Positions 6,379-59,411 of a stretch of DNA of 64,000 nt are shown here, in pieces; position 1 is the stretch's first letter, and each line of letters opens with the position of its first letter. Under the pieces are notes generated by a model that saw only the letters and a program-made list of their open reading frames with translations, was not told the DNA's origin and ran no database searches. The DNA lies in the NCBI GenBank assembly GCA_050288625.1, contig JBNKEE010000046.1:5145-69144 (forward strand), written 5' to 3'. The position numbers and the translations under genes are program-made. Source of the stretch: Sedimenticolaceae bacterium. GTDB lineage: Bacteria; Pseudomonadota; Gammaproteobacteria; Chromatiales; Chromatiaceae.

Positions 6379-7188
6379 TTAATCCTCTTCCTTATCGTGC
6401 TCAATCAATGCATACGCCGAGTGGTTGTGGATAGACTCGAAGTTCTCTGATTCCACCACATAGGCGCTTATACGGTCATCCTCATTCAGACGCATGGATA
6501 CATCGCGCACCATATCCTCCACGAACTTTGGGTTGTCGTAGGCCCGTTCGGTCACATGTTTTTCATCTGGACGCTTCAACAGTCCGAACAGTTCGCATGA
6601 TGCCTCAGCTTCAACTAAGTCTATAATCTCCTCAATCCAGACAAATCCTCTTACCTTTGCCTGTACTGTTACATGGGAGCGCTGATTATGGGCGCCTCGG
6701 TCGGATATCTTTTTGGAGCAGGGGCAGAGGCTTGTCACTGGAACCACCACACGTATGATCATGGTGGGAATGCCTTTATGTATTTCACCGATCAGGGTTA
6801 CATCATAGTCCAGCAGACTCTTGACCTTAGATACCGGCGCCTGCTTCCTGATGAAATATGGAAAATTCATCTCGATGTGCCCTGCTTCCGCTTCCAGCAG
6901 TTTCGCCATCTCTTTTAACATGTCGTTGAAGGACTCAACGCCGATTTCAGTGTCATGGCTGTTGAGGATCTCCACAAAACGGGACATGTGAGTACCCTTG
7001 AAGTTGTGGGGTAGGTTGACGTACATGTTGAAGTTAGCAACCGTGTGCTGCTCACCCCCACTACGGTCCTTGATCCTTACAGGATGGCGTATATCCTTGA
7101 TTCCTACCTTGTTTATAGCAATATGGCGGGTATCTTTACTGCTCTGAACATCAGCGATCTCAGGTTGTTTGGTGACATCTTCCGTCAA
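6379..7188 (-). CDS. folE2: GTP cyclohydrolase I type 2 (FolE2/MptA family)
   Basis: 269 aa. [23 protein letters not shown] and GAHNQRS motifs are characteristic of FolE2. Confidence 0.85.
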
Positions 7189-7349
7189 GGTGGAAATCCT
7201 CTAGCACTTGTGGGGCCGCATCTTCTACCCCAGCATTCTGAAAAGCCATACATTATGAGTCTAGCAAAGGAGCGGCGCAACTCTAGGCCCTAAATAAATG
7301 TGTGAATTGACAAAATACTTTGATATCAATACAAAATGAAGGGTCTCTG

Positions 7350-8258
7350 TCAGCTGTTGCGTGAAACAATATAGTCCGCCAGCCAGCGTAGGTGGTCTGC
7401 CTTGTCATCAAAGACGTCCAAGCTCTCAATGGACTCTAGGTGTAGCTGGTTGAGCAGATCGCGCGCGCCCTGCAATCCGAGTAGCGATGGGTATGTAGGC
7501 TTGTTGTTGGCCTGGTCCTTGCCTTTTGTCTTACCTAGGGTCTCGGTATCTCCTTCAATATCTAGGATGTCGTCCTTCACCTGAAAGGCCAATCCTATGC
7601 GTTTGGCATATTGGTCTAGACCAGAGATCTGATCTGGAGTTGCATCTGGTGCAGCTAGATATCCCATGCGGACAGATGCCAAGATCAGGGCTCCGGTCTT
7701 GTGTATGTGCATATTTTCCAATTCTATCAGGGTCAGCTCTTTTCCCACCGAATCCAGGTCCATCGCCTGTCCACCTGCCATCCCCCTGGAGCCGCTGGCG
7801 ATTGCCAGGTTATCCAACATCTGCGTACGAGCTTGAATGTCTACCTCCATACTTTGATCCTGGCACAGCACCTTAAATGCAAGTGTTTGCAGGGCGTCGC
7901 CAGTCAGGATGGCCGTTGCTTCATCAAATCTTTTGTGACATGTGGGTTGACCGCGTCTTAGATCGTCGTCGTCCATGGACGGGAGGTCGTCATGCACCAG
8001 GGAGTATGCATGTATCAGCTCCACTGCGCAGGCCGGTCCATTTAAGTGATCCAGATCGACCCCCAAAGCTTGACCGGTGGCATACACCAGTACCGGGCGT
8101 ACACGTTTGCCACCGCTCAGCACCGCATAGCGCATGGCTCGATGAAGTCTATGGGGTAAGGTGTCTTCTGAAGGTAGCCACTGCTGGAGGGCGCGCTCCA
8201 CCCGAGATTGGGATGCGACTAGGAACCTGCTCAGGTCTTGTTCATTATTGGTCTTCAA
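7350..8258 (-). CDS. ispA: (2E,6E)-farnesyl diphosphate synthase
   Basis: 302 aa. First DDxxD motif [17 protein letters not shown] and second FQVKDDILD. Overlaps the xseB stop by 14 nt (xseB-ispA operon). Confidence 0.9.
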
Positions 8259-45399: not shown

Positions 45400-48300
45400 A
45401 TGCCGCGTTTTTTCATCGATCGTCCTATCTTTGCCTGGGTGGTGGCGATCCTCATCACCTTGGCAGGGAGCGTGGCAATTTTTCGGTTACCGGTATCCGC
45501 CTACCCACCGATCGCTCCACCTCAGGTAGGTATAAACGCCTCCTATCCCGGGGCAAGCGCCGAGGTGGTGGAGAAGACCGTGACCTCTGTGATTGAGCAG
45601 CAATTGACCAGCGTCGATAATCTGCTCTACTTTACCTCCACATCTCGTTCTACCGGTAGTGCCCAGATCACCCTTACGTTTCAGAGTGGGACCGATCCGG
45701 ATATCGCCGCAGTTCAGGTACAGAACCGGCTTAGTGTGGCTGAGGCCCGTCTGCCTCGTGAGGTAGTGCAGAACGGCATCACCGTGGCCAAGGCCAACAA
45801 CGACTTTTTGATGGTGGTGGCCCTCAAGTCCACCGATCCCAATTTTGATACCTATGCCCTGAATAACCTGATCGCGTCACAGGTGTTGGATCCGATTCAG
45901 CGCCTGCCCGGTGTGGGTAACGCCAGATTGTTCGGTGCCGCCTACGCCATGCGTATCTGGCTCAATCCGGACAAGCTACGTGGCTATGGCCTTAGTGCAG
46001 CCGACGCGCTGAACGCGATTCGCAACCAGAACGTGCAGATCGCCGCCGGTAATATAGGTGCGGAACCGGCCGTGCCCGGTCAGGGCTTCACTGCCTCGGT
46101 GACCGCAGCCAGCCGCTTCACCGACCCGCAAGAATTCGCCCGTATAATTCTGCGCACCAATGCAGATGGCAGCACGGTACGTCTGCAGGATGTGGCGCGC
46201 ATTGCCCTCGGGGCCGAATCCTATGGACATGACGTACATGTAAACGGAGAGCCGATAGCCGGTTTCGCCATCATGCTGGCTCCTCAGGCCAATGCCCTGC
46301 AGACTGCGGAGGCGATACGAAGCAAGATGGAGCAGGTGCAGCAGTATTTTCCGGCCGGGGTGAGCTGGTTCGTACCCTATGACAGCACCCAGTTTATAAC
46401 CATATCAATCGACGAGGTGGTCTACACTCTGATAGAGGCGGTGGTGTTGGTATTCCTGGTGATCCTGCTGTTCCTGCAGAACCTGCGCGCAACCATCATC
46501 CCCACTCTGGTGGTGCCGGTGGCGCTTACCAGTGCCTTTGCCGGCATGTATCTGGTCGGATTCTCCATCAATGTATTGAGCATGTTCGCACTGGTGCTGG
46601 CCATAGGCCTGGTGGTGGATGACGCCATCGTAGTGGTGGAGAACGTGGAGCGCATCATGACCGAGGAAGGTCTGCCTCCTAAGGAGGCGGCACGCAAGGC
46701 CATGGATCAGATCACCGGCGCGGTCATCGCTATGACAACGGTGTTGGCGGCGGTGTTTATCCCTATGGCATTGGTGAGCGGAAGTGTGGGAGCCATATAT
46801 CGCCAGTTCGCCCTGACTATCGCCATATCTATGGTGATCTCGGCGATCATGGCCTTGAGTTTCACCCCGGCGCTGTGTGCTACCATCCTCAAGCCCCAGC
46901 ATGGGGAGCCGAATATCCTGCTGCGCGGTTTCAATAAGTTCTATCAACTGGGTAACGACTTCTATCTGCAACGGGTGGCCCAGGCCATTCGCCACACCCC
47001 GCGCTGGATGATGGCCTTTATTGCGCTGGTGGTGGTTACGGCATTCCTGTACATACGTCTGCCCAGCAGCTTCCTGCCTGAGGAAGACAAGGGCTACGCC
47101 CTGGCCCTGATCCAGCTGCCGCCCGGCGCCAGCATGGAGCGCACCGGCAAGGTACTGAGTCAAGCGGAGGGGATCATTCGACAGCATAAGGCGGTGGATA
47201 AGGTGGTGACCGTGGGAGGGTTCAGCTTTATCGGTCAGGGCGAAAACGTAGGTCTCGGCTTTATCCGCCTGCATGACTGGAGTCAGCGTAAGACGCCGGA
47301 TCAGCAGATCAAGGCCTTTATCGGCTGGGCCAACGGTGCCCTTCAGAGTATCAAAGGGGCACGCATATTCGTGGTAAATCTACCCACTATTCGCGGTCTT
47401 GGACGTTTTGGCGGTTTCGATCTGCGCCTGGAAGACCGGGCCGGACTTGGCCATGATGAGTTGGTCAAGGCGCGCAATATGTTGTTGGGCGCAGCAGCCA
47501 AGCAACCCACTCTGATGGGGGTGCGCCCGAATCAGCTAGAGGACGCCCCGGAACTGCAACTGCACGTAGATAGGGTGCAGGCCCAGTCCATGGGACTGAA
47601 GCTGACGGATATATACGACGCCATTCGTCTGATGTTGGCGCCGGTCTACGCCAACGATTTTAATTTTCAGGGACGGGTCTTGAAGGTGTTGGTGCAGGCC
47701 GATGCCGCCTTTCGCAGCCGTCCGGAAGACCTTTCCCGCTACTATATTCCGTCGAATGATGGCGGTGTGGATGAGATGGTGCCACTGAGCAGCGTAGTCA
47801 ACTCAAGTTGGCACACGGCGCCACCGGCAATCGACCACTATAACGGTTTTCCATCAATCCAGATCAACGGCGGGGCGGCGCCCGGGAGCAGTTCAGGGCA
47901 GGCAATGGACACCATGGCGCAGATCGTGAGCAATGAGCTGCCCAACGGCATAGGCTTTGAGTGGTCCGGTCAGTCGTTCCAGGAGATACTGTCGGGACAG
48001 CAGACCCCTATCCTGTTCTCACTCTCTCTTCTGGTGGTGTTCCTGGCTCTGGCGGCGCTGTATGAGAGTTGGTCAGTCCCGGCTGCGGTACTGATGGTGG
48101 TGCCCCTCGGGGTGCTGGGGGCGCTCAGCTTTACCTGGCTGCGTGGTCTGGAGGATGACGTATTCTTCAAGGTGGGCATGATCGCGGTCATTGGCCTCTC
48201 GGCCAAGAACGCCATACTTATCATCGAGTTCGCCAACACCATGCGTCGCGAAGGACGCGATCTGCTTGATGCGACCATGGAGGCATGCCGGCTACGTCTG

Positions 48301-48498
48301 CGCCCCATCCTTATGACCTCTATAGCCTTTATCTTCGGCGTCATGCCGCTAGCCCTTTCCACCGGTGCTGGCGCCAACAGCCGCCATGCCATCGGAACTG
48401 GTGTGATGGGGGGAATGACGGGCGCCACGGTGCTTGGAGTACTGTTCGTGCCAATATTCTTCGTGGTGGTGCGGCGCCTGATCGGCGATCGGACCTAG
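45400..48498 (+). CDS. RND multidrug efflux permease (AcrB/MexB-like, HAE1)
   Basis: 1032 aa. MPRFFIDRPIFAWV start, 12-TM/two-loop architecture, conserved TM4 VVDDAIVVVEN. Confidence 0.95.
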   Translation: MPRFFIDRPIFAWVVAILITLAGSVAIFRLPVSAYPPIAPPQVGINASYPGASAEVVEKTVTSVIEQQLTSVDNLLYFTSTSRSTGSAQITLTFQSGTDPDIAAVQVQNRLSVAEARLPREVVQNGITVAKANNDFLMVVALKSTDPNFDTYALNNLIASQVLDPIQRLPGVGNARLFGAAYAMRIWLNPDKLRGYGLSAADALNAIRNQNVQIAAGNIGAEPAVPGQGFTASVTAASRFTDPQEFARIILRTNADGSTVRLQDVARIALGAESYGHDVHVNGEPIAGFAIMLAPQANALQTAEAIRSKMEQVQQYFPAGVSWFVPYDSTQFITISIDEVVYTLIEAVVLVFLVILLFLQNLRATIIPTLVVPVALTSAFAGMYLVGFSINVLSMFALVLAIGLVVDDAIVVVENVERIMTEEGLPPKEAARKAMDQITGAVIAMTTVLAAVFIPMALVSGSVGAIYRQFALTIAISMVISAIMALSFTPALCATILKPQHGEPNILLRGFNKFYQLGNDFYLQRVAQAIRHTPRWMMAFIALVVVTAFLYIRLPSSFLPEEDKGYALALIQLPPGASMERTGKVLSQAEGIIRQHKAVDKVVTVGGFSFIGQGENVGLGFIRLHDWSQRKTPDQQIKAFIGWANGALQSIKGARIFVVNLPTIRGLGRFGGFDLRLEDRAGLGHDELVKARNMLLGAAAKQPTLMGVRPNQLEDAPELQLHVDRVQAQSMGLKLTDIYDAIRLMLAPVYANDFNFQGRVLKVLVQADAAFRSRPEDLSRYYIPSNDGGVDEMVPLSSVVNSSWHTAPPAIDHYNGFPSIQINGGAAPGSSSGQAMDTMAQIVSNELPNGIGFEWSGQSFQEILSGQQTPILFSLSLLVVFLALAALYESWSVPAAVLMVVPLGVLGALSFTWLRGLEDDVFFKVGMIAVIGLSAKNAILIIEFANTMRREGRDLLDATMEACRLRLRPILMTSIAFIFGVMPLALSTGAGANSRHAIGTGVMGGMTGATVLGVLFVPIFFVVVRRLIGDRT

Positions 48499-49055: not shown

Positions 49056-52000
49056 TCAATACGAGTTCGCGGTTGCTAACTCACCTTCATAGGAGTTGTC
49101 AGACCACCTTTCGTCGTCGACCCCGGTATCCGCAGCCGCTCGATAGTAACGCTCCGGCCCCATGGTTTTGAGTAGTGCCAGGGTAAGCAATTCCTGGTTG
49201 ACGTCGCCGTCGGCGGAGAACAGGTGCTGTACCCGTCCCTGTTTTCCGCTGGCGTGTTGCAGCGCAGGGGTAAGTGCCTCGCCCATGGAAGATACCATGC
49301 AGCCGTTAGGCGCGATGTTGAATACTATATCGGTGCCGTGGCGCAGCTCCGTCATAACCTCACCAACGTATGGACTGATCTCACCCAAAGGACGCAGTGT
49401 CGGCAGGATCTTGCGCGCTTTGTGTGTGGCGGTGGTGGTTGATACCGGCAGTGGCACTCCTGCCGCCCGGTACAACGGGCGTGCAACAAGAGTGCGCATT
49501 GAGAACTGCAGCATGCGTGTTGCAAGGATTCTGGATTGAATCGTTTTAACCTGTGTGACGTCATGATCTGGCGTGGCATACAGGCGCTTCAATTCTTCGT
49601 TGTGCGTCTCAATCTCCTCTTCGCATAGCCATTCCATATAGCTCCATGTCGGGGTAAAGGCCAGGTTGAAGCGACGGAATCCAAGATTAGCCAACAGCAG
49701 GCGGAAGATATCCTCGCACTGGGCTACGCGCATGTAGGCCTCGCCGGTCATAGCGATATTTAGAGCATCGCTGCGTGGCGGGCGGCCATGAATCCAGGTC
49801 TTAGCAAAGCGATGCAGGGGTTTGGCGATGTCTCTACCATGCAGGCGGTAGGCGAAATATTTCACCGCTGGACCCAGATAGCTTACTGTACCGACCCGGT
49901 CGAGCAACTTGCGCATTAATTTCCCCGGTCCTTTGAAGGCTTCCAGGGCCGCGAACAGCTCACGTTTGAGTAGACGATAATCGGCTAGAAAGCGTTTGTA
50001 TTCCGCAAAGTCACGGCAAGCCACGCCCCCGGTGAACAGCAGGCTGTGCAGTACCCCCTCCAGGACCAGGGCCTGATGGGCGCGCGCCAATACCCACTCA
50101 TCTATACCTATGTTGTAGCCTTCCGACTCCTGACCAACCAGGAATTTGAGCACGCCTTGTCCAGGTAGCGCACTGCACGATGTATCACTGGTGTGTTTGC
50201 CGTAATAGAGGAGCTGATGCACATGCATATATTGCCCCTGGCGACAGGGTCCAGTGCCCTTGTTATCGAAATAGAGCAGACGCTTTTTATCCACGAACTG
50301 CGGATCACCGGAATCGCGACGGTTGTGGAAGGCCTCTACCGCGCGTTCCAGATCGGCGTAGACACCGGCCAGCGGGGCACAGATGGCATCGCCGGTCGAG
50401 CGGCGCCCCTGCTTGATCAACTGTTCAAGATCATGATCCTCGTGGTAGGTGTCGAGACAGGTGAAACCAGCGCCGCGTAACACGGCGGTTAGCATGCGGT
50501 TGTCGGACATGGTCGGGAAGCAGATCACATCGCTGTCCGGATTGATAGGGCCGGATTGACTGATCTCGTCCAGGGTACGGATATCGAACTGTTTCCCACC
50601 ATTGATATGTAGCCGTTCGTGTAGTCCGAGATCAAGCTGTTTGACGTAGGTGTTCACTCGGTTCTCCAAGTGGGCCAGTTCTTTGATAACCGCGTCCGAT
50701 TGAATCAATAAGAACGGTCGCTGTTTCATGATCTCGGCGATCAACGGTTGGATGGTGCTGTCTGGTCCGCAACTGAAGGTGGAGATCTGTATCACCGGCA
50801 GCAGGTCAGGTCCGGACTCGATGCGTCGGAACAATTCGCTCAAGCGCGGATGGTGCAGGCGTTTGTGCAAAGCGCGTTGCGATACCGCATCGAGGATGGT
50901 CACGATGGCGTGCGGGTTGCGCCAGTAAATGTGTTCATACTCTGCATTGAGTTCAAGATCCAGCAGATATGAAGGCAACGCCACCATGCGTTTATCGCGC
51001 AGGAGTCGACGCACGTGACTGTCATATATCCCGGGATTAAGGATGTACTCACGTCCAACCACCAGCGCCACCGGTATATCTTTTTCCAGAGCTTCTTCCA
51101 TCAGGTCGGCAGCAAAATCTGCGGTTTGGGCACGTAATTCCAGATGGTCATCGATGGCACCGGAGATTGCGTCCAGCAGACTATTCCGGTCGGGATGGAT
51201 TCCATAATGCCTAAACAGCGGTGTTAGGCGATCCCACAGTTGACTGTATATGGTTTCGCTGTCGAGTTCGCTCAGGTCAAGATTGAAAAGGTGTAGACGC
51301 GCATCCGCATGGTCCATGCGTGCCAGATTCATGGCCACCGCCACGCCACCCTGGTTCAGGGTGCAGGTGCGTCCCATACTCTTGCCTGCAGTAGGGAGAA
51401 ATTCGATCTGTGGCGCCAAAATCATCCCGTGCGGCTGTGCTGCCAGGCGGCGGTAGTGTCCGACTGCGCCCATGTGCGGTGCACAGGAGTCCACGTTGAA
51501 CAGCGGTTGCGCCGCGGTCAGGTCGCTCTCCTGCACGTTGTCCACATGTACCGGCAGCCCTAGGCGTTCGAACAGACGCGCCAGCAGATAGGACCATTCG
51601 GAGACGGCGAAGCTGCGTGGGATAACTAGTCGGTCCTGCGCCTCACTGCGAGGCTGCTGCCTGTCGATGAAGTCCCATATCTCCTTATAGGTGTCGCGCA
51701 CGGTTGCGTTGGCGTCACCGCTGTTTTTCTTTTTCGCGATCAACTCATTGATGGCGCTACAGCCACCGAGGGTAAACGACAGTGGTTTGGTCTCCTTATC
51801 GTCCTGTTGGCGACAGGTCAGTTTGGTACGGTTGCAGATTGCGGCATCGTCACCGCATGCGGTGCCGCGGCACTGGATGATGCGTTTCTCAAAACTCGTT
51901 TCAAGGAATCTGGCGATGTCGATCTGCACAGCATCAAGCAGCGCACTCTGTTCCGTCGTACGTACCAGTCCGAAGCAGGCCCGATGGCCCGGGTTCGGTG

Positions 52001-53921
52001 GTACCAGAGCATAGCTTGGTGCCTTGATGAATGTCTGCAGACGGTGTGTTACCGCCACCGGCAGAGGTTCGGATAGCATGGTCTGACCATGTAGCAACAC
52101 CACGGCATTACCCGGGAGCTCCACCTGTGACCAGAGCGTGCGTGCCATGTTTTCTACCACCGCCCAGTTGGCGGAGGCCAAGATCTCACTGCGTGGAACA
52201 CCCTGTGCCTGTAGTTTGCTGGCGTTTTCCATCAGGAACACCGCGCAGGTGGCGTTGATCGCGTGTCCCTTTGCTGCCTGATAAGCGTCGTTGCAGGCAT
52301 CGGCCACGCTTGGCAGGCCGAACAGGGTGGCCAGAGTATCCATAAGGCTGCCGGTGCCGGCTGAGCATTTTAGGTTCATGGCGTTGTTGAAAAGTTCAGC
52401 CTCGCGCAGGGCGATGGTGGATATCTTGGTATCCTCGCCGCCGATATCTACCAATATGCAAAACTCTTCGTTTATATCCTCTATCCCCTGATCCTTTAAA
52501 CGCTGAACATGTTCACGCGCGAGAGCGATCGATCCCCGGGCGTGGGCATAGTTCTCAACCAATACCGAAACGCGTTCGGCCAGTTCCGGGTAGATGCGCT
52601 GCAGTGCCTGCTGCACCTGATAGCGCGCCGAACCCGTTATACCGATGCTGCGTACTGTCAGGGATTCGATACCGGCGGTGTGCAGATCGGAAAAGAGTTG
52701 TTTGATGGTTTCGATGGTGTCGCCCGCATTACTATAGGCGCGTACCGCCAGTACCGCACCGGTTTCGGAGTCGGTTATCAATATCTTGGCCATGGTTGAA
52801 CCGACGTCGAGGCCAAGATTCAGGCTATGGCCATTCAGTATGTCGAGATCAGTATGCTCGATATCGTCGTTGAGACGAAGATAGCGGGCATTTGCCTGGT
52901 ATCTTTGCTTGAGCTCGGTAAAGGCAGGATAGGTCTGCGTGTTTTCACGATGCAGCAGGCGTGAGTCCGGCTGCACGATACCCTGGTCACCGAGGCGGGT
53001 AACCATCTCGCGTAGCGCCGTCAACACCATGGTATTGTCGGGGTCACAGACCACCTCTTTTACCCCTAGGGTAGTCAGATAGTCTTCGGCGCATTCGCGT
53101 GCGAAACGCCAATGAAATACGCGACCGGTAAGGCACACTTTGTCAAAGCCTGGTGTAACCTTGCGGCAGGCCTTGAGTACCTCGGATTTGAGGGTGGTGG
53201 CGAGGGCCATCTCCAGAGGGATGCCCTGATTCTTGTCGGAGATGGTGGCGGATGAACTAAAGACTCCGCAACGATCAGCACGCTCGTTGATCTGCTCTCG
53301 CGCCGCGCGCCCGGCATCACCGGCATAGTCGTTCAATATGCCATCGACCTCCTGGCGACCCAGCCCCAGCTTCTGCAATACCCGGTCGAGATTTACACCA
53401 GAACCGGCGCCGCAGCGTGGATTCACTACCAGTAGATCGTCCTTGAGATCACCGGAACGGTCTACGCCTACCACCAGATAACCAGAGGCGGACAATTCCA
53501 CGATGGCGAGTGATTGTGCATCATCGTTCCCGTTCTGTAGCAGAAGATCATGTGCCGCGAGCCAGGCGGCGGCGCTGGACATAAATACCTTGCCGCAGCC
53601 CAGTGCCTCACGAACCAGCGGACCCAGCTTGCCGCTGATATATATTGGAGCGGTTGAATTGGTTCCGAAGCGCTCGTGCACCTGTTGGCGTGACAACAGT
53701 TCCGGCAGGTCGGTGTTGCTCGGGAACAGTGTGTCGGTGACGATGGTGCCGCTACGATCGAATGTGATGAATCGGATATGGCCGACACCGGCATCAATGA
53801 ACAGGCTCATTCCTGTGTGTACGTCACTTTTCGGACCCGTGACCTGTGTGGTGGCAAGGCTCTTTCCGAAAGGACCATGAGCTGTGATGGCATCTCGCAT
53901 ATATGGATTAGGTTTTGTCAT
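49056..53921 (-). CDS. giant fused BCR/HAD-family protein: tandem BcrAD/BadFG (HgdC-like) activase ATPase modules + two DUF2229/HgdB-like dehydratase-component modules (PlsA/PlsR-like architecture; function unknown)
   Basis: 1621 aa. Module 2 (aa ~365-640) has LDVGSTMAK, DIGGEDTK, KCSAGTG and TCAVF. Module 1 (aa ~38-310) keeps RCGAGSG and RCGVF but has degenerate phosphate loops. The downstream half has STFSCGPD (aa 1047-1054) and GPCRQGQY (aa 1224-1231), typical of activase-related DUF2229 proteins. GGGAG SD 6 nt upstream of the ATG. Confidence 0.85.
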   Translation of the reverse strand: MTKPNPYMRDAITAHGPFGKSLATTQVTGPKSDVHTGMSLFIDAGVGHIRFITFDRSGTIVTDTLFPSNTDLPELLSRQQVHERFGTNSTAPIYISGKLGPLVREALGCGKVFMSSAAAWLAAHDLLLQNGNDDAQSLAIVELSASGYLVVGVDRSGDLKDDLLVVNPRCGAGSGVNLDRVLQKLGLGRQEVDGILNDYAGDAGRAAREQINERADRCGVFSSSATISDKNQGIPLEMALATTLKSEVLKACRKVTPGFDKVCLTGRVFHWRFARECAEDYLTTLGVKEVVCDPDNTMVLTALREMVTRLGDQGIVQPDSRLLHRENTQTYPAFTELKQRYQANARYLRLNDDIEHTDLDILNGHSLNLGLDVGSTMAKILITDSETGAVLAVRAYSNAGDTIETIKQLFSDLHTAGIESLTVRSIGITGSARYQVQQALQRIYPELAERVSVLVENYAHARGSIALAREHVQRLKDQGIEDINEEFCILVDIGGEDTKISTIALREAELFNNAMNLKCSAGTGSLMDTLATLFGLPSVADACNDAYQAAKGHAINATCAVFLMENASKLQAQGVPRSEILASANWAVVENMARTLWSQVELPGNAVVLLHGQTMLSEPLPVAVTHRLQTFIKAPSYALVPPNPGHRACFGLVRTTEQSALLDAVQIDIARFLETSFEKRIIQCRGTACGDDAAICNRTKLTCRQQDDKETKPLSFTLGGCSAINELIAKKKNSGDANATVRDTYKEIWDFIDRQQPRSEAQDRLVIPRSFAVSEWSYLLARLFERLGLPVHVDNVQESDLTAAQPLFNVDSCAPHMGAVGHYRRLAAQPHGMILAPQIEFLPTAGKSMGRTCTLNQGGVAVAMNLARMDHADARLHLFNLDLSELDSETIYSQLWDRLTPLFRHYGIHPDRNSLLDAISGAIDDHLELRAQTADFAADLMEEALEKDIPVALVVGREYILNPGIYDSHVRRLLRDKRMVALPSYLLDLELNAEYEHIYWRNPHAIVTILDAVSQRALHKRLHHPRLSELFRRIESGPDLLPVIQISTFSCGPDSTIQPLIAEIMKQRPFLLIQSDAVIKELAHLENRVNTYVKQLDLGLHERLHINGGKQFDIRTLDEISQSGPINPDSDVICFPTMSDNRMLTAVLRGAGFTCLDTYHEDHDLEQLIKQGRRSTGDAICAPLAGVYADLERAVEAFHNRRDSGDPQFVDKKRLLYFDNKGTGPCRQGQYMHVHQLLYYGKHTSDTSCSALPGQGVLKFLVGQESEGYNIGIDEWVLARAHQALVLEGVLHSLLFTGGVACRDFAEYKRFLADYRLLKRELFAALEAFKGPGKLMRKLLDRVGTVSYLGPAVKYFAYRLHGRDIAKPLHRFAKTWIHGRPPRSDALNIAMTGEAYMRVAQCEDIFRLLLANLGFRRFNLAFTPTWSYMEWLCEEEIETHNEELKRLYATPDHDVTQVKTIQSRILATRMLQFSMRTLVARPLYRAAGVPLPVSTTTATHKARKILPTLRPLGEISPYVGEVMTELRHGTDIVFNIAPNGCMVSSMGEALTPALQHASGKQGRVQHLFSADGDVNQELLTLALLKTMGPERYYRAAADTGVDDERWSDNSYEGELATANSY

Positions 53922-54090: not shown

Positions 54091-54837
54091 TTATTTCAAC
54101 AGGATCTTGTCAAACTGGCTGAACATGCCAACCGTCCATGGGCGCATGGCCAGGACCACTGTGGTGCCGAAGCGTTGATCAAACGGCAGGCCGGCATCAT
54201 CGCTAGAAAGCTCATCGAACTCCTTGGCCAGGCGCTCCATCTTTCTATGGAAGACCGATATTGAGCTTTGCGCCAGCATCCCGTTGATCACAATTAGATT
54301 CTCTTGTTGTTTGGAAAAACGGGAATTAAAGAAATCTGATTGTAACTTTTTTAGAAAGAATTGTTGAATGGGGCCGTTCTCTCTCCACTGGAAGTTCGGC
54401 GCCACCAACAGCTTGATGCGATTCTTTGGCAGCAATTCGATCATTTTCAGCCGGTCGAGCTGCGCCAGTAGCTTGATACATCTGGCCTCAGACATCCCGG
54501 AGTGTTCCACTATCTGTTCAAAGGTCCAACGGTTCAACACATAGACGGAGACAAGCAGCAGTTCTATATCACTTACGATCTCTTGCTCCTGCTCCTGGGA
54601 CAAGCCGGTGATCTGGGTGGAGGCATTGTCCTTCAGCATCTGCAAGAGATCGGTGAATTCAATGCCGAGCATGCGGCATATCTCATCTATTCGTTGCAAA
54701 GTGAAGTTCTTTTGCGAGAAGGCCCTCTTCACGCTGGCCTCTGAGATCCGCAGATGTCTTGCTGTATCCGCGTAGGTCTTTCCGTGTGTCTTGAGCGCCT
54801 TTTTGAGCATATTGATTAACAGTGCGGTTTGGGCCAT
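54091..54837 (-). CDS. XRE-family helix-turn-helix transcriptional regulator
   Basis: N-terminal HTH (KTYADTARHLRISEASVKRAFSQKNFTLQRIDEICRMLGI) plus a C-terminal domain of about 170 aa of unknown type. ATG at 54837 has a GGGAG SD; the track ORF extends to 54906. Confidence 0.7.
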   Translation of the reverse strand: MAQTALLINMLKKALKTHGKTYADTARHLRISEASVKRAFSQKNFTLQRIDEICRMLGIEFTDLLQMLKDNASTQITGLSQEQEQEIVSDIELLLVSVYVLNRWTFEQIVEHSGMSEARCIKLLAQLDRLKMIELLPKNRIKLLVAPNFQWRENGPIQQFFLKKLQSDFFNSRFSKQQENLIVINGMLAQSSISVFHRKMERLAKEFDELSSDDAGLPFDQRFGTTVVLAMRPWTVGMFSQFDKILLK

Positions 54838-54892
54838 GCTATTAACTCCCGGTTGGTCTCGAATAATAATACCAACGGGTAAATATAATTCA

Positions 54893-54909
54893 ACGATGTC
54901 TAACATCGT
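54893..54909. promoter_or_regulatory. perfect 7-3-7 palindrome in divergent promoter region (candidate operator)
   Basis: ACGATGT-CTA-ACATCGT lies between the regulator ATG (54837) and the lplT-aas fusion ATG (54973). Confidence 0.35.
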
Positions 54910-54972
54910 AGTACGAATGGACGCGTTGACCTAATCTAGCCCCATCATCAATAACACTAAAGGGCGGGTTGC

Positions 54973-57900
54973 ATGGATAAGCTGTTCAAGGTATCTGGTT
55001 TCATAGCGTTTCTGGTTGTGGTCTTTCTCAATGGCTTTATCGACCTGGGCCACAAGATTCTGATCCAAAACACTATTTTCAAGATCTATGACAGTCAGGA
55101 TCAGATCATCCTGTCTGCCCTGGTCAACGGTTTAATTCTGTTGCCGTTTGTACTGTTGTTCACGCCGGCCGGATTCCTGGCGGATAAATATCGCAAACCC
55201 AGGGTTATGCAGGTCAGCGCAGCGATAGCGGTGGTCCTTACCCTGTTGATTACCTACTCCTACTATATGGGCTGGTTCCAGGTCGCATTCGGCATGACCT
55301 TTCTCCTGGCTGTGCAGAGCGCCTTCTATTCGCCGGCTAAATACGGCTATATAAAGGAGTTGACCGGCAAGGAACAGTTGACCCGGGCCAACGCTGCAGT
55401 GCAGGCGGTGACCATAGTGGCCATCCTGTCTGGTATCTTTGTCTTTTCGGTGCTCTTCGAGCGCTGGCTGACTGACGTCAACTTCAGCAGCGAGAAGGAG
55501 ATATTGCAGATCATCTCGCCGTTGGGTTGGGTGTTGGTGGCCTGTGCCATGCTGGAGTTGCTATTGACCCTCAGGCTCTATCCCACTAAGGCCGAGGCGC
55601 CAGAACTCCTCTTTGACTGGAGCAGCTACGGCACAGGCCGTTACCTAAAGAGCAACCTGAGTAAGATTTGGGGTGACAGCACCATCTGGCATTCCATAGT
55701 CGGCCTATCTGTCTTCTGGGGTATCTCCCAGGTGGTGCTGGCGGCCTTCCCAGCATTCGCAAAAGAGACCATAGATATAACCAACACGGTTGTGATTCAG
55801 GGAATGATGGCATGCTCAGGCATCGGCATTATCATAGGTTCGGTGGTGGCCGGCAAGTCATCCAGGGACTATATCGAGACCGGCCTGATACCCCTGGGTG
55901 CCCTGGGTATAGTGGTAGCGCTGTTCTTTATACCGCAACTGGAGTCTACTGTTCTGCTGGCGATGGTCTTTCTCCTCCTGGGTATCTCCGGCGGCGTCTT
56001 TATCGTACCTCTGAACGCCCTGATCCAGTTCCATGCCAGGGACAGCGAACTGGGCACCGTGCTGGCAGGCAATAACTGGATCCAGAATATCGTAATGCTG
56101 GCTTTTCTCGGGCTCACCGTCATGTTCGCGGTCAACGGGATGGAGAGCATAGGCCTGTTCCATCTGTTGAGCGCCGCTGCTGTGGTGGGCGCCATCTATA
56201 CGGTCTATCAACTGCCGCAGTCGCTGGTGCGTTACGTCATTGCCCGACTGTTCGCCAGCACCTATCGCATCGAGGTAATGGGCTTCAATAATCTTCCGGC
56301 GCAGGGCGGTGTCCTGATGCTGGGGAACCATATAAGTTTTCTGGACTGGGCCATGATCCAGATCGCCTGCCCACGCCCAGTGCGTTTTGTCATGCACCGT
56401 GGTATCTATCAGCGCTGGTATCTGAAATGGTTTCTCGACTTTTTCGGCGTCATTCCGATAGCCCGAGGGCATAGCAAGGAGGCGCTGGAGCAGATAAATG
56501 GTCTTCTCAAGGCGGGTGAGGTGGTCTGCCTCTTCCCCGAGGGGGCCATCAGTCGCAACGGTCAGTTGGGAGAGTTTCGTCGCGGCTATGAACGGGCCGT
56601 AGAGGGCGTCGATGGTGTCATCCTGCCTTTCTACCTGCGCGGACTCTGGGGTAGTCGTTTCTCCCGCTCCAGCGAGAAGCTACAGCGCATCCGCAACCTG
56701 CATCTGCGTAGCGAGGTGATCGTGGCATTCGGCGCCACCCTGCCGCTCAATACTCCGGCCCATGAGCTAAAACAGAAGGTGTTCGATCTCTCCATCGATA
56801 CCTGGGAGCAGCATACCGGTCATCTAGATCCGGTTCCGCTTGCGTGGTTGCGTAGCGCCAGACGGGTAGGCAGTGAATTAAGCCTGGCCGACGCTAGGGG
56901 TGATGTAACCTTGTCCGGCTATAGGGTGATTGCTGCGGTACTTGCCTTTTCCCGTCTGATACGCCGGCGTAGTCCGGAGCGCAACGTCGGTCTGCTTCTA
57001 CCTACCAGCAGTGCTGGGACCATCACTAACCTGGCCTGCCTGTTGCTGGGCAAGACGGTGGTCAATCTGAATTACACCGCCAGCATGCAGGCATTGCAGG
57101 CAGCGGTAAAGAAGGCAGAGATACGTAATATCTACACCTCGCGGCGCTTTATCGAAAAGCTTGTCCAGAAAGGCATGGAGATCAATCCGCTGTTGCAGGA
57201 GGTAGAGGTGATCTATCTGGAGGATATGCGGCATGAGATCAGCAAGGCGCGGCAACTCCGGCTCCTGGCTGCGGCCGTTCTGTTCCCTGCCAGGTTGCTG
57301 TATGCGTTCTTCGGCAAGCGGGTGGGGATAGAGCATCCGGCGGCTATACTCTTCTCCAGCGGCAGTGAGGGTGAACCCAAGGGGGTGGTGCTCAGTCATC
57401 GCAACATTATGGGCAATATCCGTCAGGTCTCGGATGTGCTCGATACCAGGGATGAGGACGTAGTCATGGCTACCCTGCCACTGTTTCATGCCCTGGGACT
57501 GACGGTGACCGGGTTTCTGCCCATGGTGGAGGGTATCCCCGCCATCTGTCATCCCGATCCCACCGATGTCCTCAATATCGCTCAAGCCATCGGAAAGTAT
57601 CAGGCCACTTTCTACTGTGCCACTTCCACCTTTCTGCGGCTGTTCATCCGCAACCGGCGTGTCCATCCCCTGATGCTGGCCTCGCTCCGCATCGTGGTGG
57701 CCGGCGCCGAGCGCCTCAGCCCCGAGGTGCGCGATCAGTTCAAACTCAAGTTCAACCAGGATATATACGAGGGCTACGGCACCACCGAGACCACACCGGT
57801 GGCCAGCGTGAACATACCGGACCGTATTGATCCGCGGGATTGGCAGGTGCAGGAGGGGAATAGGATTGGCACCGTCGGTATGCCATTGCCGGGAAGCAGT

Positions 57901-58428
57901 TTCCGCATCGTCGATCCGGATAGCCTGGAAACCCTCCCGTCCGGGGAGGATGGCCTGATCATGATCGGCGGCACCCAGGTGATGTTGGGTTATCTGGACG
58001 ACCAGGAGAAGACCACGGATGTGATGGTCGATCTGGACGGCAAACGCTGGTACAAGACCGGAGATAAGGGACATCTGGATACGGATGGTTTCCTCACTAT
58101 CGTAGATCGTTACTCCCGTTTCGCCAAGATAGGCGGAGAAATGATCAGTCTCGGCGCCATCGAAGGCATGATCGGTAGGCAACTGCCAGATGAGGTGGAG
58201 ATACTCACCGCCGCTTTGCCGGATGGCAAGAAGGGGGAGAAGGTGGTACTGCTGGTTGCCGGTGATATCCAGGTGGATGAACTCAGGCAGCGTATTGCAG
58301 AGTCTGGGCTAAATCCATTGATGCGTCCGGTGGAGATCATCCCAGTGGATGCAATACCCAAACTGGGCAGCGGCAAGAACGACTACAAGCGTGCCAAAGA
58401 GATTGCACTGGAAGGAGCCTCGACATGA
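54973..58428 (+). CDS. aas: triple fusion: MFS lysophospholipid transporter (LplT-like) / 2-acyl-GPE acyltransferase (PlsC domain) / acyl-ACP synthetase (Aas-like)
   Basis: 1151 aa. About 12 TM helices in aa 1-430. Acyltransferase HX4D as NHISFLD, then FPEGAISRNG. Adenylation motifs SSGSEGEPKGVVLSH, YEGYGTTET, YKTGDKG and GSGKNDY. Confidence 0.88.
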   Translation: MDKLFKVSGFIAFLVVVFLNGFIDLGHKILIQNTIFKIYDSQDQIILSALVNGLILLPFVLLFTPAGFLADKYRKPRVMQVSAAIAVVLTLLITYSYYMGWFQVAFGMTFLLAVQSAFYSPAKYGYIKELTGKEQLTRANAAVQAVTIVAILSGIFVFSVLFERWLTDVNFSSEKEILQIISPLGWVLVACAMLELLLTLRLYPTKAEAPELLFDWSSYGTGRYLKSNLSKIWGDSTIWHSIVGLSVFWGISQVVLAAFPAFAKETIDITNTVVIQGMMACSGIGIIIGSVVAGKSSRDYIETGLIPLGALGIVVALFFIPQLESTVLLAMVFLLLGISGGVFIVPLNALIQFHARDSELGTVLAGNNWIQNIVMLAFLGLTVMFAVNGMESIGLFHLLSAAAVVGAIYTVYQLPQSLVRYVIARLFASTYRIEVMGFNNLPAQGGVLMLGNHISFLDWAMIQIACPRPVRFVMHRGIYQRWYLKWFLDFFGVIPIARGHSKEALEQINGLLKAGEVVCLFPEGAISRNGQLGEFRRGYERAVEGVDGVILPFYLRGLWGSRFSRSSEKLQRIRNLHLRSEVIVAFGATLPLNTPAHELKQKVFDLSIDTWEQHTGHLDPVPLAWLRSARRVGSELSLADARGDVTLSGYRVIAAVLAFSRLIRRRSPERNVGLLLPTSSAGTITNLACLLLGKTVVNLNYTASMQALQAAVKKAEIRNIYTSRRFIEKLVQKGMEINPLLQEVEVIYLEDMRHEISKARQLRLLAAAVLFPARLLYAFFGKRVGIEHPAAILFSSGSEGEPKGVVLSHRNIMGNIRQVSDVLDTRDEDVVMATLPLFHALGLTVTGFLPMVEGIPAICHPDPTDVLNIAQAIGKYQATFYCATSTFLRLFIRNRRVHPLMLASLRIVVAGAERLSPEVRDQFKLKFNQDIYEGYGTTETTPVASVNIPDRIDPRDWQVQEGNRIGTVGMPLPGSSFRIVDPDSLETLPSGEDGLIMIGGTQVMLGYLDDQEKTTDVMVDLDGKRWYKTGDKGHLDTDGFLTIVDRYSRFAKIGGEMISLGAIEGMIGRQLPDEVEILTAALPDGKKGEKVVLLVAGDIQVDELRQRIAESGLNPLMRPVEIIPVDAIPKLGSGKNDYKRAKEIALEGAST

Positions 58429-59411
58429 AGACCGTAGATATCCATACCCACCTGATGAATCCGCAGGTGCGCTTCGATCGACTCTTTGACAAGGTCACCA
58501 TCCGCTTCTTCGCACAGGGGTTGGGTGTGGATGCGGCGGCACTTATGGCCGATCCCTACGAGGTCTATGTGGCATCCATGGCCCGGGCGATCCGCGAATC
58601 CGAACATGTGGAGCGTGCCTGCCTGTTCGGTGTCGACAGCCGCCTAGACGAGCAGGGTAGAGAGATTGATCGAGATCGGACCGTATGTGCCACAACCGAA
58701 GATACGCTGGCAGCGGATCAACGCTATCCAGACACATTCATCCCCTTCTTCTCCATCAACCCCAGACGACAGAATGCACTGGACCTGATCGACGAGTATG
58801 TGGAGAGGGGGTGCTGCGGCGCCAAGTTCCTGCAAAACTATTGGGGTGTGGATCTCAACGATGAGAGATTCATCCCATACTATGAGAGATTGGTCGCCCA
58901 CAAGATGCCGCTGATCATCCACATCGGCAGTGAGTACAGTATCGACTCGGATGCCAGATATGAACGCATAGACATGCTTGATCTTCCTCTGGAGTGTGGC
59001 GTGACCGTCATCGCCGCCCATATGGGTCTGGGACGCATCAACTTCAAACTATGTTTCTGGCGCAACCTATCACAGCGCCCCTACTGTTTCGATGATGACT
59101 ATTTCAGGATGTTGGAAAGACTATGCCGGCACGAAAACCTATATGCTGACATCTCCGCCATCCTGGCGCCGTTGCGTGCCAGGGCTTTGCGTCATCTCTC
59201 TAAACAGATTGATGTGCATCACAAGATTCTGTTTGGTACTGATTACCCGGTGCCATTCTCAGTTCGCTTTAACAGCTACGATCTGCCAGTGGCGAAACGC
59301 AAACAGATCGCACAAATTAAAAACCCGTTCGATCGAAATCTTGCTGTTTTGCTGGAATACTTTCCGGAAGGGAATCCCATCTATGAGAATTATCGGAAGT
59401 TGTTGGGGTAA
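58425..59411 (+). CDS. metal-dependent amidohydrolase (TIM-barrel, Amidohydro_2-like)
   Basis: 328 aa. N-terminal VDIHTHL (HxH metal site), IHIGSE, AAHMG and GTDYP motifs. The start overlaps the aas stop in ATGA. Confidence 0.7.
   Translation: MKTVDIHTHLMNPQVRFDRLFDKVTIRFFAQGLGVDAAALMADPYEVYVASMARAIRESEHVERACLFGVDSRLDEQGREIDRDRTVCATTEDTLAADQRYPDTFIPFFSINPRRQNALDLIDEYVERGCCGAKFLQNYWGVDLNDERFIPYYERLVAHKMPLIIHIGSEYSIDSDARYERIDMLDLPLECGVTVIAAHMGLGRINFKLCFWRNLSQRPYCFDDDYFRMLERLCRHENLYADISAILAPLRARALRHLSKQIDVHHKILFGTDYPVPFSVRFNSYDLPVAKRKQIAQIKNPFDRNLAVLLEYFPEGNPIYENYRKLLG

Follow-up and report, generated by a model that had tools for sequence, protein, structure and literature searches.

The window analysed here, a 64,000-nucleotide stretch of contig JBNKEE010000046.1 (assembly GCA_050288625.1) from a Sedimenticolaceae bacterium, carries on its minus strand a giant, monocistronic gene whose open reading frame (ORF) encodes 1,621 amino acids (aa) and starts at an ATG at 53921 with a GGGAG Shine-Dalgarno sequence upstream, M38 (53810) being a possible alternative start. 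The protein is laid out as Act1, a linker, Act2, a Cys-rich linker, DUF2229 and a C-terminal HgdA/B-like part, and it is the activase pair formed by Act1 and Act2 (52002-53810, aa 38-640) that concerns us here. We consider it likely, jointly with the mechanism set out below, that the gene encodes a self-contained, ATP-driven iron-sulfur (Fe-S) enzyme of the BCR/HAD radical-enzyme family with a PlsA/Ger-like build. Its parts are:

49056..53921, minus strand: whole gene, ORF of 1,621 aa
53811..53921, minus strand: N-terminal leader (aa 1-37), weakly conserved and disordered in the AlphaFold model
52992..53810, minus strand: module 1 (Act1, aa 38-310), a cryptic HgdC-type ASKHA module undetected by Pfam
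52830..52991, minus strand: inter-module linker (aa 311-364), weakly conserved, with a ratio of nonsynonymous to synonymous substitution rates (dN/dS) of 0.26
52002..52829, minus strand: module 2 (Act2, aa 365-640), a canonical BcrAD_BadFG ATPase module
49059..52001, minus strand: catalytic part (aa 641-1621) with the Cys-rich linker, DUF2229 and the C-terminal region
50976-51623, minus strand: DUF2229 (PF09989, aa 767-982), Pfam score 50 bits, cut-off 29.4

Pfam places a single PF01869 (BcrAD_BadFG) stretch on the protein, at aa 369-632 (60.5 bits, cut-off 31.5), and finds no BcrAD_BadFG match in aa 1-340; PF06050 (HGD-D) has no match in the 1,621-aa protein, even at E values up to 10. With TIGR00241, Act1 scores 18.7 bits and Act2 82 bits, both below the cut-off of 125.4, and the stand-alone activase of the same genome reaches 254 bits. 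A sequence search of the PDB matches aa 419-609 to HgdC (1HUX), HadI (4EHT), DCCP-R (7YYL) and MbdQ/MbdP (9GAI).

Searched alone, aa 1-340 gave a weak PDB match to MbdP (E 0.008) in which both Cys motifs were already aligned. A module-1 profile drawn from some 100 family members was compared by hhalign with a profile representing 128 canonical modules, and the alignment extended over 252 columns (Prob 82%, E 1.1e-5). In it IDAGVGHIR falls on the phosphate-1 loop, VELSASGY on the phosphate-2 loop and LTGRVFHW on the adenosine motif, and both Act1 Cys motifs meet their counterparts. MAFFT, run on all modules together with the stand-alone activase from this genome, yielded matching equivalences. 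The motifs of module 1 had been placed by a hand alignment in the initial annotation of this DNA, and the two methods agree with that placement, with no hidden, shifted nucleotide-binding motif appearing in either. A weak hhalign comparison of family Act1 with family Act2 (E 0.04) put phosphate-2 at VGVDRSGD (aa 151-158) instead; this placement was rejected because the Cys spacing (28 versus 27 residues), the AlphaFold strand order, MAFFT and the better-powered profile comparison all favour VELSASG. A hidden Markov model of the canonical module, trained without the family of the 1,621-aa protein (the query family), gives 127-162 bits for Act2 and 3-15 bits for the Act1 modules of the family, against 33-300 bits for every Act1 outside it.

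Predicted structures point the same way. An AlphaFold2 model of aa 34-335 alone reached a mean predicted local distance difference test (pLDDT) of 92.7 and a predicted TM-score (pTM) of 0.90, and in a Foldseek search of the PDB its top ten matches are all Fe-S-bridged activases (MbdP/Q 9gai, DCCP-R 7yyl, HadI 4eht/4ehu and HgdC 1hux), with target-normalised TM-scores (TMt) of 0.70-0.79 over 272-293 columns; sugar and pantothenate kinases rank next, at TMt ≤0.67. The same activases are the best structural matches (TMt 0.80-0.86) of a model holding both modules (pLDDT 87.6, pTM 0.84), in which VELSASG forms the hairpin joining strands 137-144 and 147-154, that is, the phosphate-2 position, and C218 and C559 each stand at the N-terminus of a helix, comparable to the cluster helix of DCCP-R (PMC9351452). 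Both models thereby bear out the earlier proposal that two ASKHA modules share one chain, and by profile alignment and predicted structure Act1 reads as a genuine HgdC/BcrAD-type module, an ASKHA fold with an inserted Fe/S domain.

An ORF check found all eight motifs quoted in the initial annotation at the places it had given them. Together with the column of the conserved Glu, the sites of the two modules are:

53769..53801, minus strand: Act1 phosphate-1 equivalent FIDAGVGHIRF (aa 41-51); Asp43 and Gly45 kept, Ser replaced by Val46, Lys by Arg50
53577..53579, minus strand: Act1 Ser115, in the conserved-Glu column (DCCP-R E69, candidate catalytic base)
53481..53501, minus strand: Act1 phosphate-2 equivalent VELSASG (aa 141-147); acidic residue kept, Gly-Gly-Gln-Asp replaced by Ser-Ala-Ser-Gly, Lys lost
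53397..53417, minus strand: Act1 first cluster-Cys motif RCGAGSG (aa 169-175; C170)
53259..53273, minus strand: Act1 second cluster-Cys motif RCGVF (aa 217-221; C218), at the N-terminus of helix 219-231
52785..52811, minus strand: Act2 phosphate-1 LDVGSTMAK (aa 371-379)
52554..52556, minus strand: Act2 Glu456, equivalent of DCCP-R E69, placed by the E-x-x-A-H-A-R-G motif
52425..52448, minus strand: Act2 phosphate-2 DIGGEDTK (aa 492-499), aligned with DCCP-R D89-K96 (HMMER alignment)
52350..52370, minus strand: Act2 first cluster-Cys motif KCSAGTG (aa 518-524); C519 aligns with HgdC C127 and DCCP-R C115
52236..52250, minus strand: Act2 second cluster-Cys motif TCAVF (aa 558-562); C559 aligns with HgdC C166

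Act2, described earlier as canonical in its phosphate-1 and phosphate-2 motifs, has all eight core ATP-site positions (phosphate-1, phosphate-2 and the Glu base) and keeps every functional position reported for DCCP-R (PMC9351452). Act1 has two of the eight (D43 and E142), the others being V46, S115, S144, A145, G147 and L149; S144-A145-S146-G147 stands for Gly-Gly-Gln-Asp and L149 for Lys. The claim that module 1 had lost its catalytic residues is thus correct for the phosphate-1 Ser, the phosphate-2 Gly-Gly-Gln/Glu-Asp-x-Lys and the Glu base, and went too far for the phosphate-1 Asp and Gly (D43, G45) and the acidic residue at 142, which are retained, as are R50, G266 and both Cys. In DCCP-R, S9-N11 and Q92-D94 hold the three phosphates, the hydrogen-bond networks to the cluster begin at G92/Q93 and at E69-K96-D94, and E69Q/N exchanges lower ATPase activity about 10-fold (PMC9351452). 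Since the residues lost from Act1 are those that in DCCP-R contact the phosphates and connect the ATP site with the cluster, Act1, judged by its sequence, is most likely non-hydrolysing.

The cluster cysteines followed the opposite course and are present in both modules, as had been claimed. C519 and C559 align directly with the HgdC ligands C127 and C166, and C170 and C218 fall into the matching columns, aligned with the equivalent cysteines of MbdP and with those of module 2; in DCCP-R the cluster ligands are C115 and C152 (PMC9351452). As a separate observation, the adenosine motif of Act2 (52068-52100, aa 608-618) reads LHGQTMLS and not QGGVA.N.

Across 116 full-length homologues (58-84% identity) there is no variation at C170, C218, C519 and C559, at D43 and G45, in the loop pattern [E/D]-x-S-A-S-G-Y or in the module-2 motifs; because the Cys, loop and motif residues are invariant in this set, the motif observations are not due to chance. 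Conservation in Act1 aa 141-280 amounts to 72-92% per 20-residue window, and the tip of the phosphate-1 hairpin (aa 46-49) is variable within the family. Compared with an 82%-identical relative, dN/dS is 0.048 for Act1, 0.077 for Act2 and 0.26 for the linker (approximate values, with dS >1), so that Act1 is not decaying and is under purifying selection as strong as that on Act2. Over longer distances the two halves of Act1 part company: dN is 0.52-0.75 in subdomain I (aa 38-136), which holds phosphate-1 and the lost Glu, against 0.17-0.27 in the cluster-bearing subdomain II and 0.17-0.24 in Act2, which makes for roughly three times as many replacements in subdomain I as in either of the others. 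Constraint is therefore relaxed on the former ATP-handling half of Act1 and full on the half that bears the cysteines.

Relatives were collected by searching 1.8 billion representative proteins with the 1,621-aa protein. The query family (>900 bits, ≥44% identity, lengths of about 1,550-1,620 aa) is separated by a sharp gap from the next full-length relatives, which are ~1,400 aa long, 25-29% identical and of PlsA/Ger architecture. The modules of 140 proteins were compared, consisting of representatives and of 77 of the 80 loci taken from named genomes; nearly all of these loci come from metagenome-assembled genomes (MAGs), no organism whose PlsA or Ger has been characterised is represented, and the phyla include Actinomycetota, Myxococcota, Acidobacteriota, Bacteroidota, Spirochaetota, Desulfobacterota and others. 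The sample is biased to relatives of the query, so that the fractions given here are not population estimates. Act2 keeps all eight core positions in 140/140 proteins, including a Glu in the conserved-Glu column of every one, and Act1 keeps all eight in 54/127 proteins outside the query family and in none of the 13 inside it. Of the 140, a single, damaged-looking sequence lacks the full pair of Act1 Cys. After clustering at 60% identity (n = 48) Act2 is complete in 48/48, Act1 in 22/48, and the Act1 Cys are present in 48/48. The comparison of many homologues proposed with the initial annotation thus shows Act1 to be degenerate in every query-family member compared and in most of this biased sample, and the loss of the ATP site to be unambiguously and strictly one-directional within it, affecting Act1 and never Act2.

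The degeneration of Act1 takes at least six forms, among them ICLGAS/VSAGGET, INIGS/VSMGGED, IDIGAET/VSIGSHGFS and LDLGK/VRIGGxGFS. When the tree is calculated from module 2 only, proteins with a degenerate Act1 fall mostly into one clade (31 rows, support of 94 in the Shimodaira-Hasegawa-like approximate likelihood ratio test), in which the query family is nested on a stem of 5.55 substitutions per site. The asymmetry between Act1 and Act2 is a superfamily-wide trend with the query family as its extreme case, and among the branches tested it is only in this family that Pfam finds one instead of two BcrAD_BadFG stretches; other PlsA/Ger superfamily branches have two PF01869 stretches. The query family itself is a deep, patchily distributed and uncharacterised clade. 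We also observed that related branches with a degenerate Act1 show QGKPA or QGMPF at the adenosine motif, and that Act1 degeneration and an altered Act2 adenosine motif tend to co-occur.

By its build the 1,621-aa protein falls among the PlsA/Ger-type fused BCR/HAD enzymes, PlsA and Ger being bacterial ether-lipid synthases. The anaerobic plasmalogen synthase PlsA/PlsR produces plasmalogens in anaerobes, and a fused PlsA is found in facultative anaerobes (PMC9702350, PMC12838417); AlphaFold3 models of PlsA carry parts labelled Act1, Act2, Red1 and Red2 (PMC12838417). With these proteins (C. perfringens CPE1194-1195 and the single-gene PlsA of E. faecalis, L. cremoris and B. longum) the 1,621-aa protein shares the series of Act1, Act2, DUF2229 and HgdAB-like reduction/dehydration modules, the organisation as one self-contained gene, membership of the BCR/HAD family and conserved Cys for Fe-S clusters (PMC12838417, PMC9702350). 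Ger (glycerol ester reductase), a 'modified PlsA' with oxygen-sensitive Fe-S chemistry, makes alkyl ethers (PMC13159169), and its representatives in T. maritima (Tmari_0479) and D. alkenivorans resemble our protein in their fused Act-Act-DUF2229 order and their stand-alone gene. Within the PlsA/Ger superfamily the identity of 25-29% to the nearest ~1,400-aa relatives and the very long stem branch set the protein apart. Homologues have been sorted by their strings of Pfam domains, which read 'BBD...' for both Ger and E. faecalis PlsA. The string reported for E. faecalis PlsA is 'BBDH', which includes two activation domains seen by Pfam (bioRxiv 10.1101/2022.04.21.487849), whereas the 1,621-aa protein is 'B D' without an HGD-D match; likewise, Pfam detects both activation domains of Ger, whereas Act1 of the 1,621-aa protein is invisible to it. 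The functionality of 'one-B' homologues has been questioned (bioRxiv 10.1101/2022.04.21.487849; PMC13274423), and a later paper found that one B correlates with plasmalogen production (PMC13274423). We found no statement in the PlsA/Ger literature examined that a 'missing' B is a cryptic module with cluster ligands but without an ATP site.

Among separately encoded activators, HgdC (1HUX), HadI (4EHT) and DCCP-R (7YYL) share the module fold (TMt 0.70-0.86), the two cluster Cys and the ATP site of Act2. They differ in that separate subunits form a symmetric dimer, in which two identical ATP sites act on one cluster, whereas here the halves are fused and the ATP site is kept in one of them only. 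In the heterodimeric BcrAD, BzdPQ and MbdPQ modules of class I benzoyl-CoA reductases, two paralogous but different ASKHA subunits bridge one [4Fe-4S] cluster, and MbdP is the best match of Act1 in both sequence and structure (PMC11971306), but their subunits are separate polypeptides. The Foldseek lists also contain ASKHA examples of duplicated NTPases. Duplicated NTPases with one inactive half include hexokinase I with its N-terminal half, TsaB beside TsaD, and ABC exporters with a degenerate site. In these, too, duplication was followed by loss of catalysis in one copy that was kept for structure or regulation, yet they lack a shared bridging Fe-S cluster and are analogies of principle only.

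The explanation that we regard as likely is an intramolecular pseudo-dimer with a shared cluster, in which Act2 is the working ATPase and Act1 its structural partner. Act1 and Act2 would pack against each other within one chain, mimicking the HgdC/DCCP-R homodimer, and one [4Fe-4S] cluster would sit between them, held by C170 and C218 of Act1 and by C519 and C559 of Act2. Act2 would bind and hydrolyse ATP, and Act1 would contribute the other cluster helix and two of the four ligands without hydrolysing ATP, so that a single ATP site, not two, would energise each electron, which would then pass to the Cys-rich linker and on to the DUF2229/HgdAB-like catalytic part. We infer that pairing within the chain is most likely, the evidence being the pTM of 0.84 of the two-module model, and that a single shared cluster is likewise the most likely arrangement. 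The substrate is inferred as well: by analogy with PlsA and Ger, an ether-lipid type activity (anoxic conversion of a glycerolipid's sn-1 acyl ester to a vinyl or alkyl ether) is a candidate for the protein. The more specific idea of a half-site archerase, with a single ATP-hydrolysing site and the Act1 pocket rebuilt around the S-A-S-G-Y loop as a conserved, non-catalytic anchor or allosteric latch, is put forward tentatively, at somewhat below even chances.

Several observations weigh against a purely structural Act1. It keeps D43, G45, R50, the acidic residue at 142 and G266, and its phosphate-2-like loop E/D-x-S-A-S-G-Y is invariant across the family, unlike what would be seen in a freely decaying site. 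Its patterns D-x-G-x-G-x-x-[KR] and [DE]-x-S-x-S-G resemble phosphate loops known from actin and further ASKHA ATPases. Act1 may bind nucleotide or even slowly hydrolyse it. Act2 for its part is unusual too, with its LHGQTMLS adenosine motif and a TIGR00241 score short of the cut-off (82 against 125.4 bits), and pairing between two chains instead of within one is possible. The main rival draws on the retained residues and the invariant S-A-S-G-Y loop: Act1 would have been remodelled to bind ATP/ADP non-hydrolytically, or another phosphorylated ligand, and would have a regulatory or latch function during turnover of Act2, in analogy to ABC exporters with one degenerate site. A dN/dS of Act1 as low as that of Act2 and pocket-forming strands modelled at pLDDT >90 speak for such a ligand site, but the tip of the phosphate-1 hairpin varies within the family, the rate of evolution of subdomain I is about three times that of the rest, and all residues that grip the triphosphate in DCCP-R (PMC9351452) are replaced, which leaves this alternative unlikely though worth keeping in sight.

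That Act1 is instead a fully active ATPase with unorthodox motifs, giving the protein two working sites, we hold to be the least probable of the alternatives. The two acidic residues with which ASKHA enzymes usually coordinate Mg2+ or water, here D43 and E/D142, are both present; however, the Glu base, the phosphate-2 Asp and Lys and the phosphate-1 Ser, invariant in 140/140 Act2 modules, are absent from 13/13 family Act1 modules (12/13 for the phosphate-1 Ser), and the score against the canonical profile is only 3-15 bits. Hardly more probable is a dimer between chains, in which Act2 and Act2' would form a symmetric, active activase and Act1 and Act1' a second, ATP-independent cluster site. 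The sequence by itself fits either geometry and the 54-residue linker allows both, but a pTM of 0.84 for two modules modelled in a single chain implies a confident mutual arrangement, and published AlphaFold3 models of fused PlsA place Act1 and Act2 in one chain with a [4Fe-4S] cluster (PMC12838417). The intramolecular pseudo-dimer with one hydrolysing half thus remains our preferred explanation.

Beyond the activase pair, the C-terminal region has further invariant Cys at 813, 853, 1051, 1155, 1181, 1226, 1302 and 1541. A Cys-rich segment between the activase pair and DUF2229 (51759-51872, aa 684-721) has four invariant Cys (C684, C689, C696 and C721) and a fifth, C703, kept in 80% of 61 family members, and is a candidate extra metal or Fe-S site.

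Next to the gene (54091-59411) lie a gene for an XRE-type helix-turn-helix protein, a divergent gene for a 1,151-aa MFS-acyltransferase-AMP-binding (LplT/Aas-like) fusion, and an amidohydrolase gene. The XRE plus LplT-acyltransferase-acyl-ACP-synthetase neighbourhood recurs only in the 82%-identical relative and was not found at the loci of three more distant family members, so any link between the LplT-Aas neighbour, which hints at lipids, and the giant gene is lineage-specific, and the neighbour's value as a definer of function is weakened. Just past the 3′ end of the giant gene, on the opposite strand, is a 1,032-aa AcrB-type RND pump (45400-48498), with a small 133-aa ORF without known family in between. 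Directly upstream of the Formivibrio citricus homologue, one of the three more distant family members, we noticed (at 7100-7867 of the contig carrying it) a 7Fe-type ferredoxin (Fer4 plus DUF3470), a possible electron donor, and an ArsR-type regulator.

Named homologues come mostly from MAGs or genomes of Thiobacillaceae, Burkholderiales, Sulfuritalea and Formivibrio. Module 1 is present in 2/8 other genomes of the genus, in 4/36 of the family sample and in 0/24 genomes from other families of the class, which makes the gene a patchy accessory gene. A separate pair on another contig of the same genome (201-2292, plus strand), encoding a 428-aa HGD-D protein and a 267-aa fully canonical activase and followed by a 237-aa membrane protein, indicates that the genome has a second, ordinary BCR/HAD-type system.

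For the PlsA/Ger-type enzymes these results bear on the 'one-B' puzzle, as the 'missing' domain is present here, folded in the models and with its cluster ligands intact; because the 'missing' B exists as a cryptic Act1, Pfam domain counts underestimate the number of complete enzymes. Activators of the HgdC/BCR type are described as working with two ATP sites on one bridging [4Fe-4S] cluster, with a power stroke of about 100 kJ/mol (PMC9351452), and how much ATP is needed per electron is a recurring question for them. A clade that retains a single complete site, and in which purifying selection is strong, provides a natural single-site enzyme in which ATP/electron stoichiometry and conformational coupling can be addressed. 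If the half-site reading is true, one ATP (about 50 kJ/mol, about 500 mV) per electron would suffice mechanistically for this enzyme class, and the repeated, one-directional decay of Act1 throughout the PlsA/Ger superfamily would reflect an asymmetry of function built into the fused enzymes, Act2 acting as motor and Act1 as stator.

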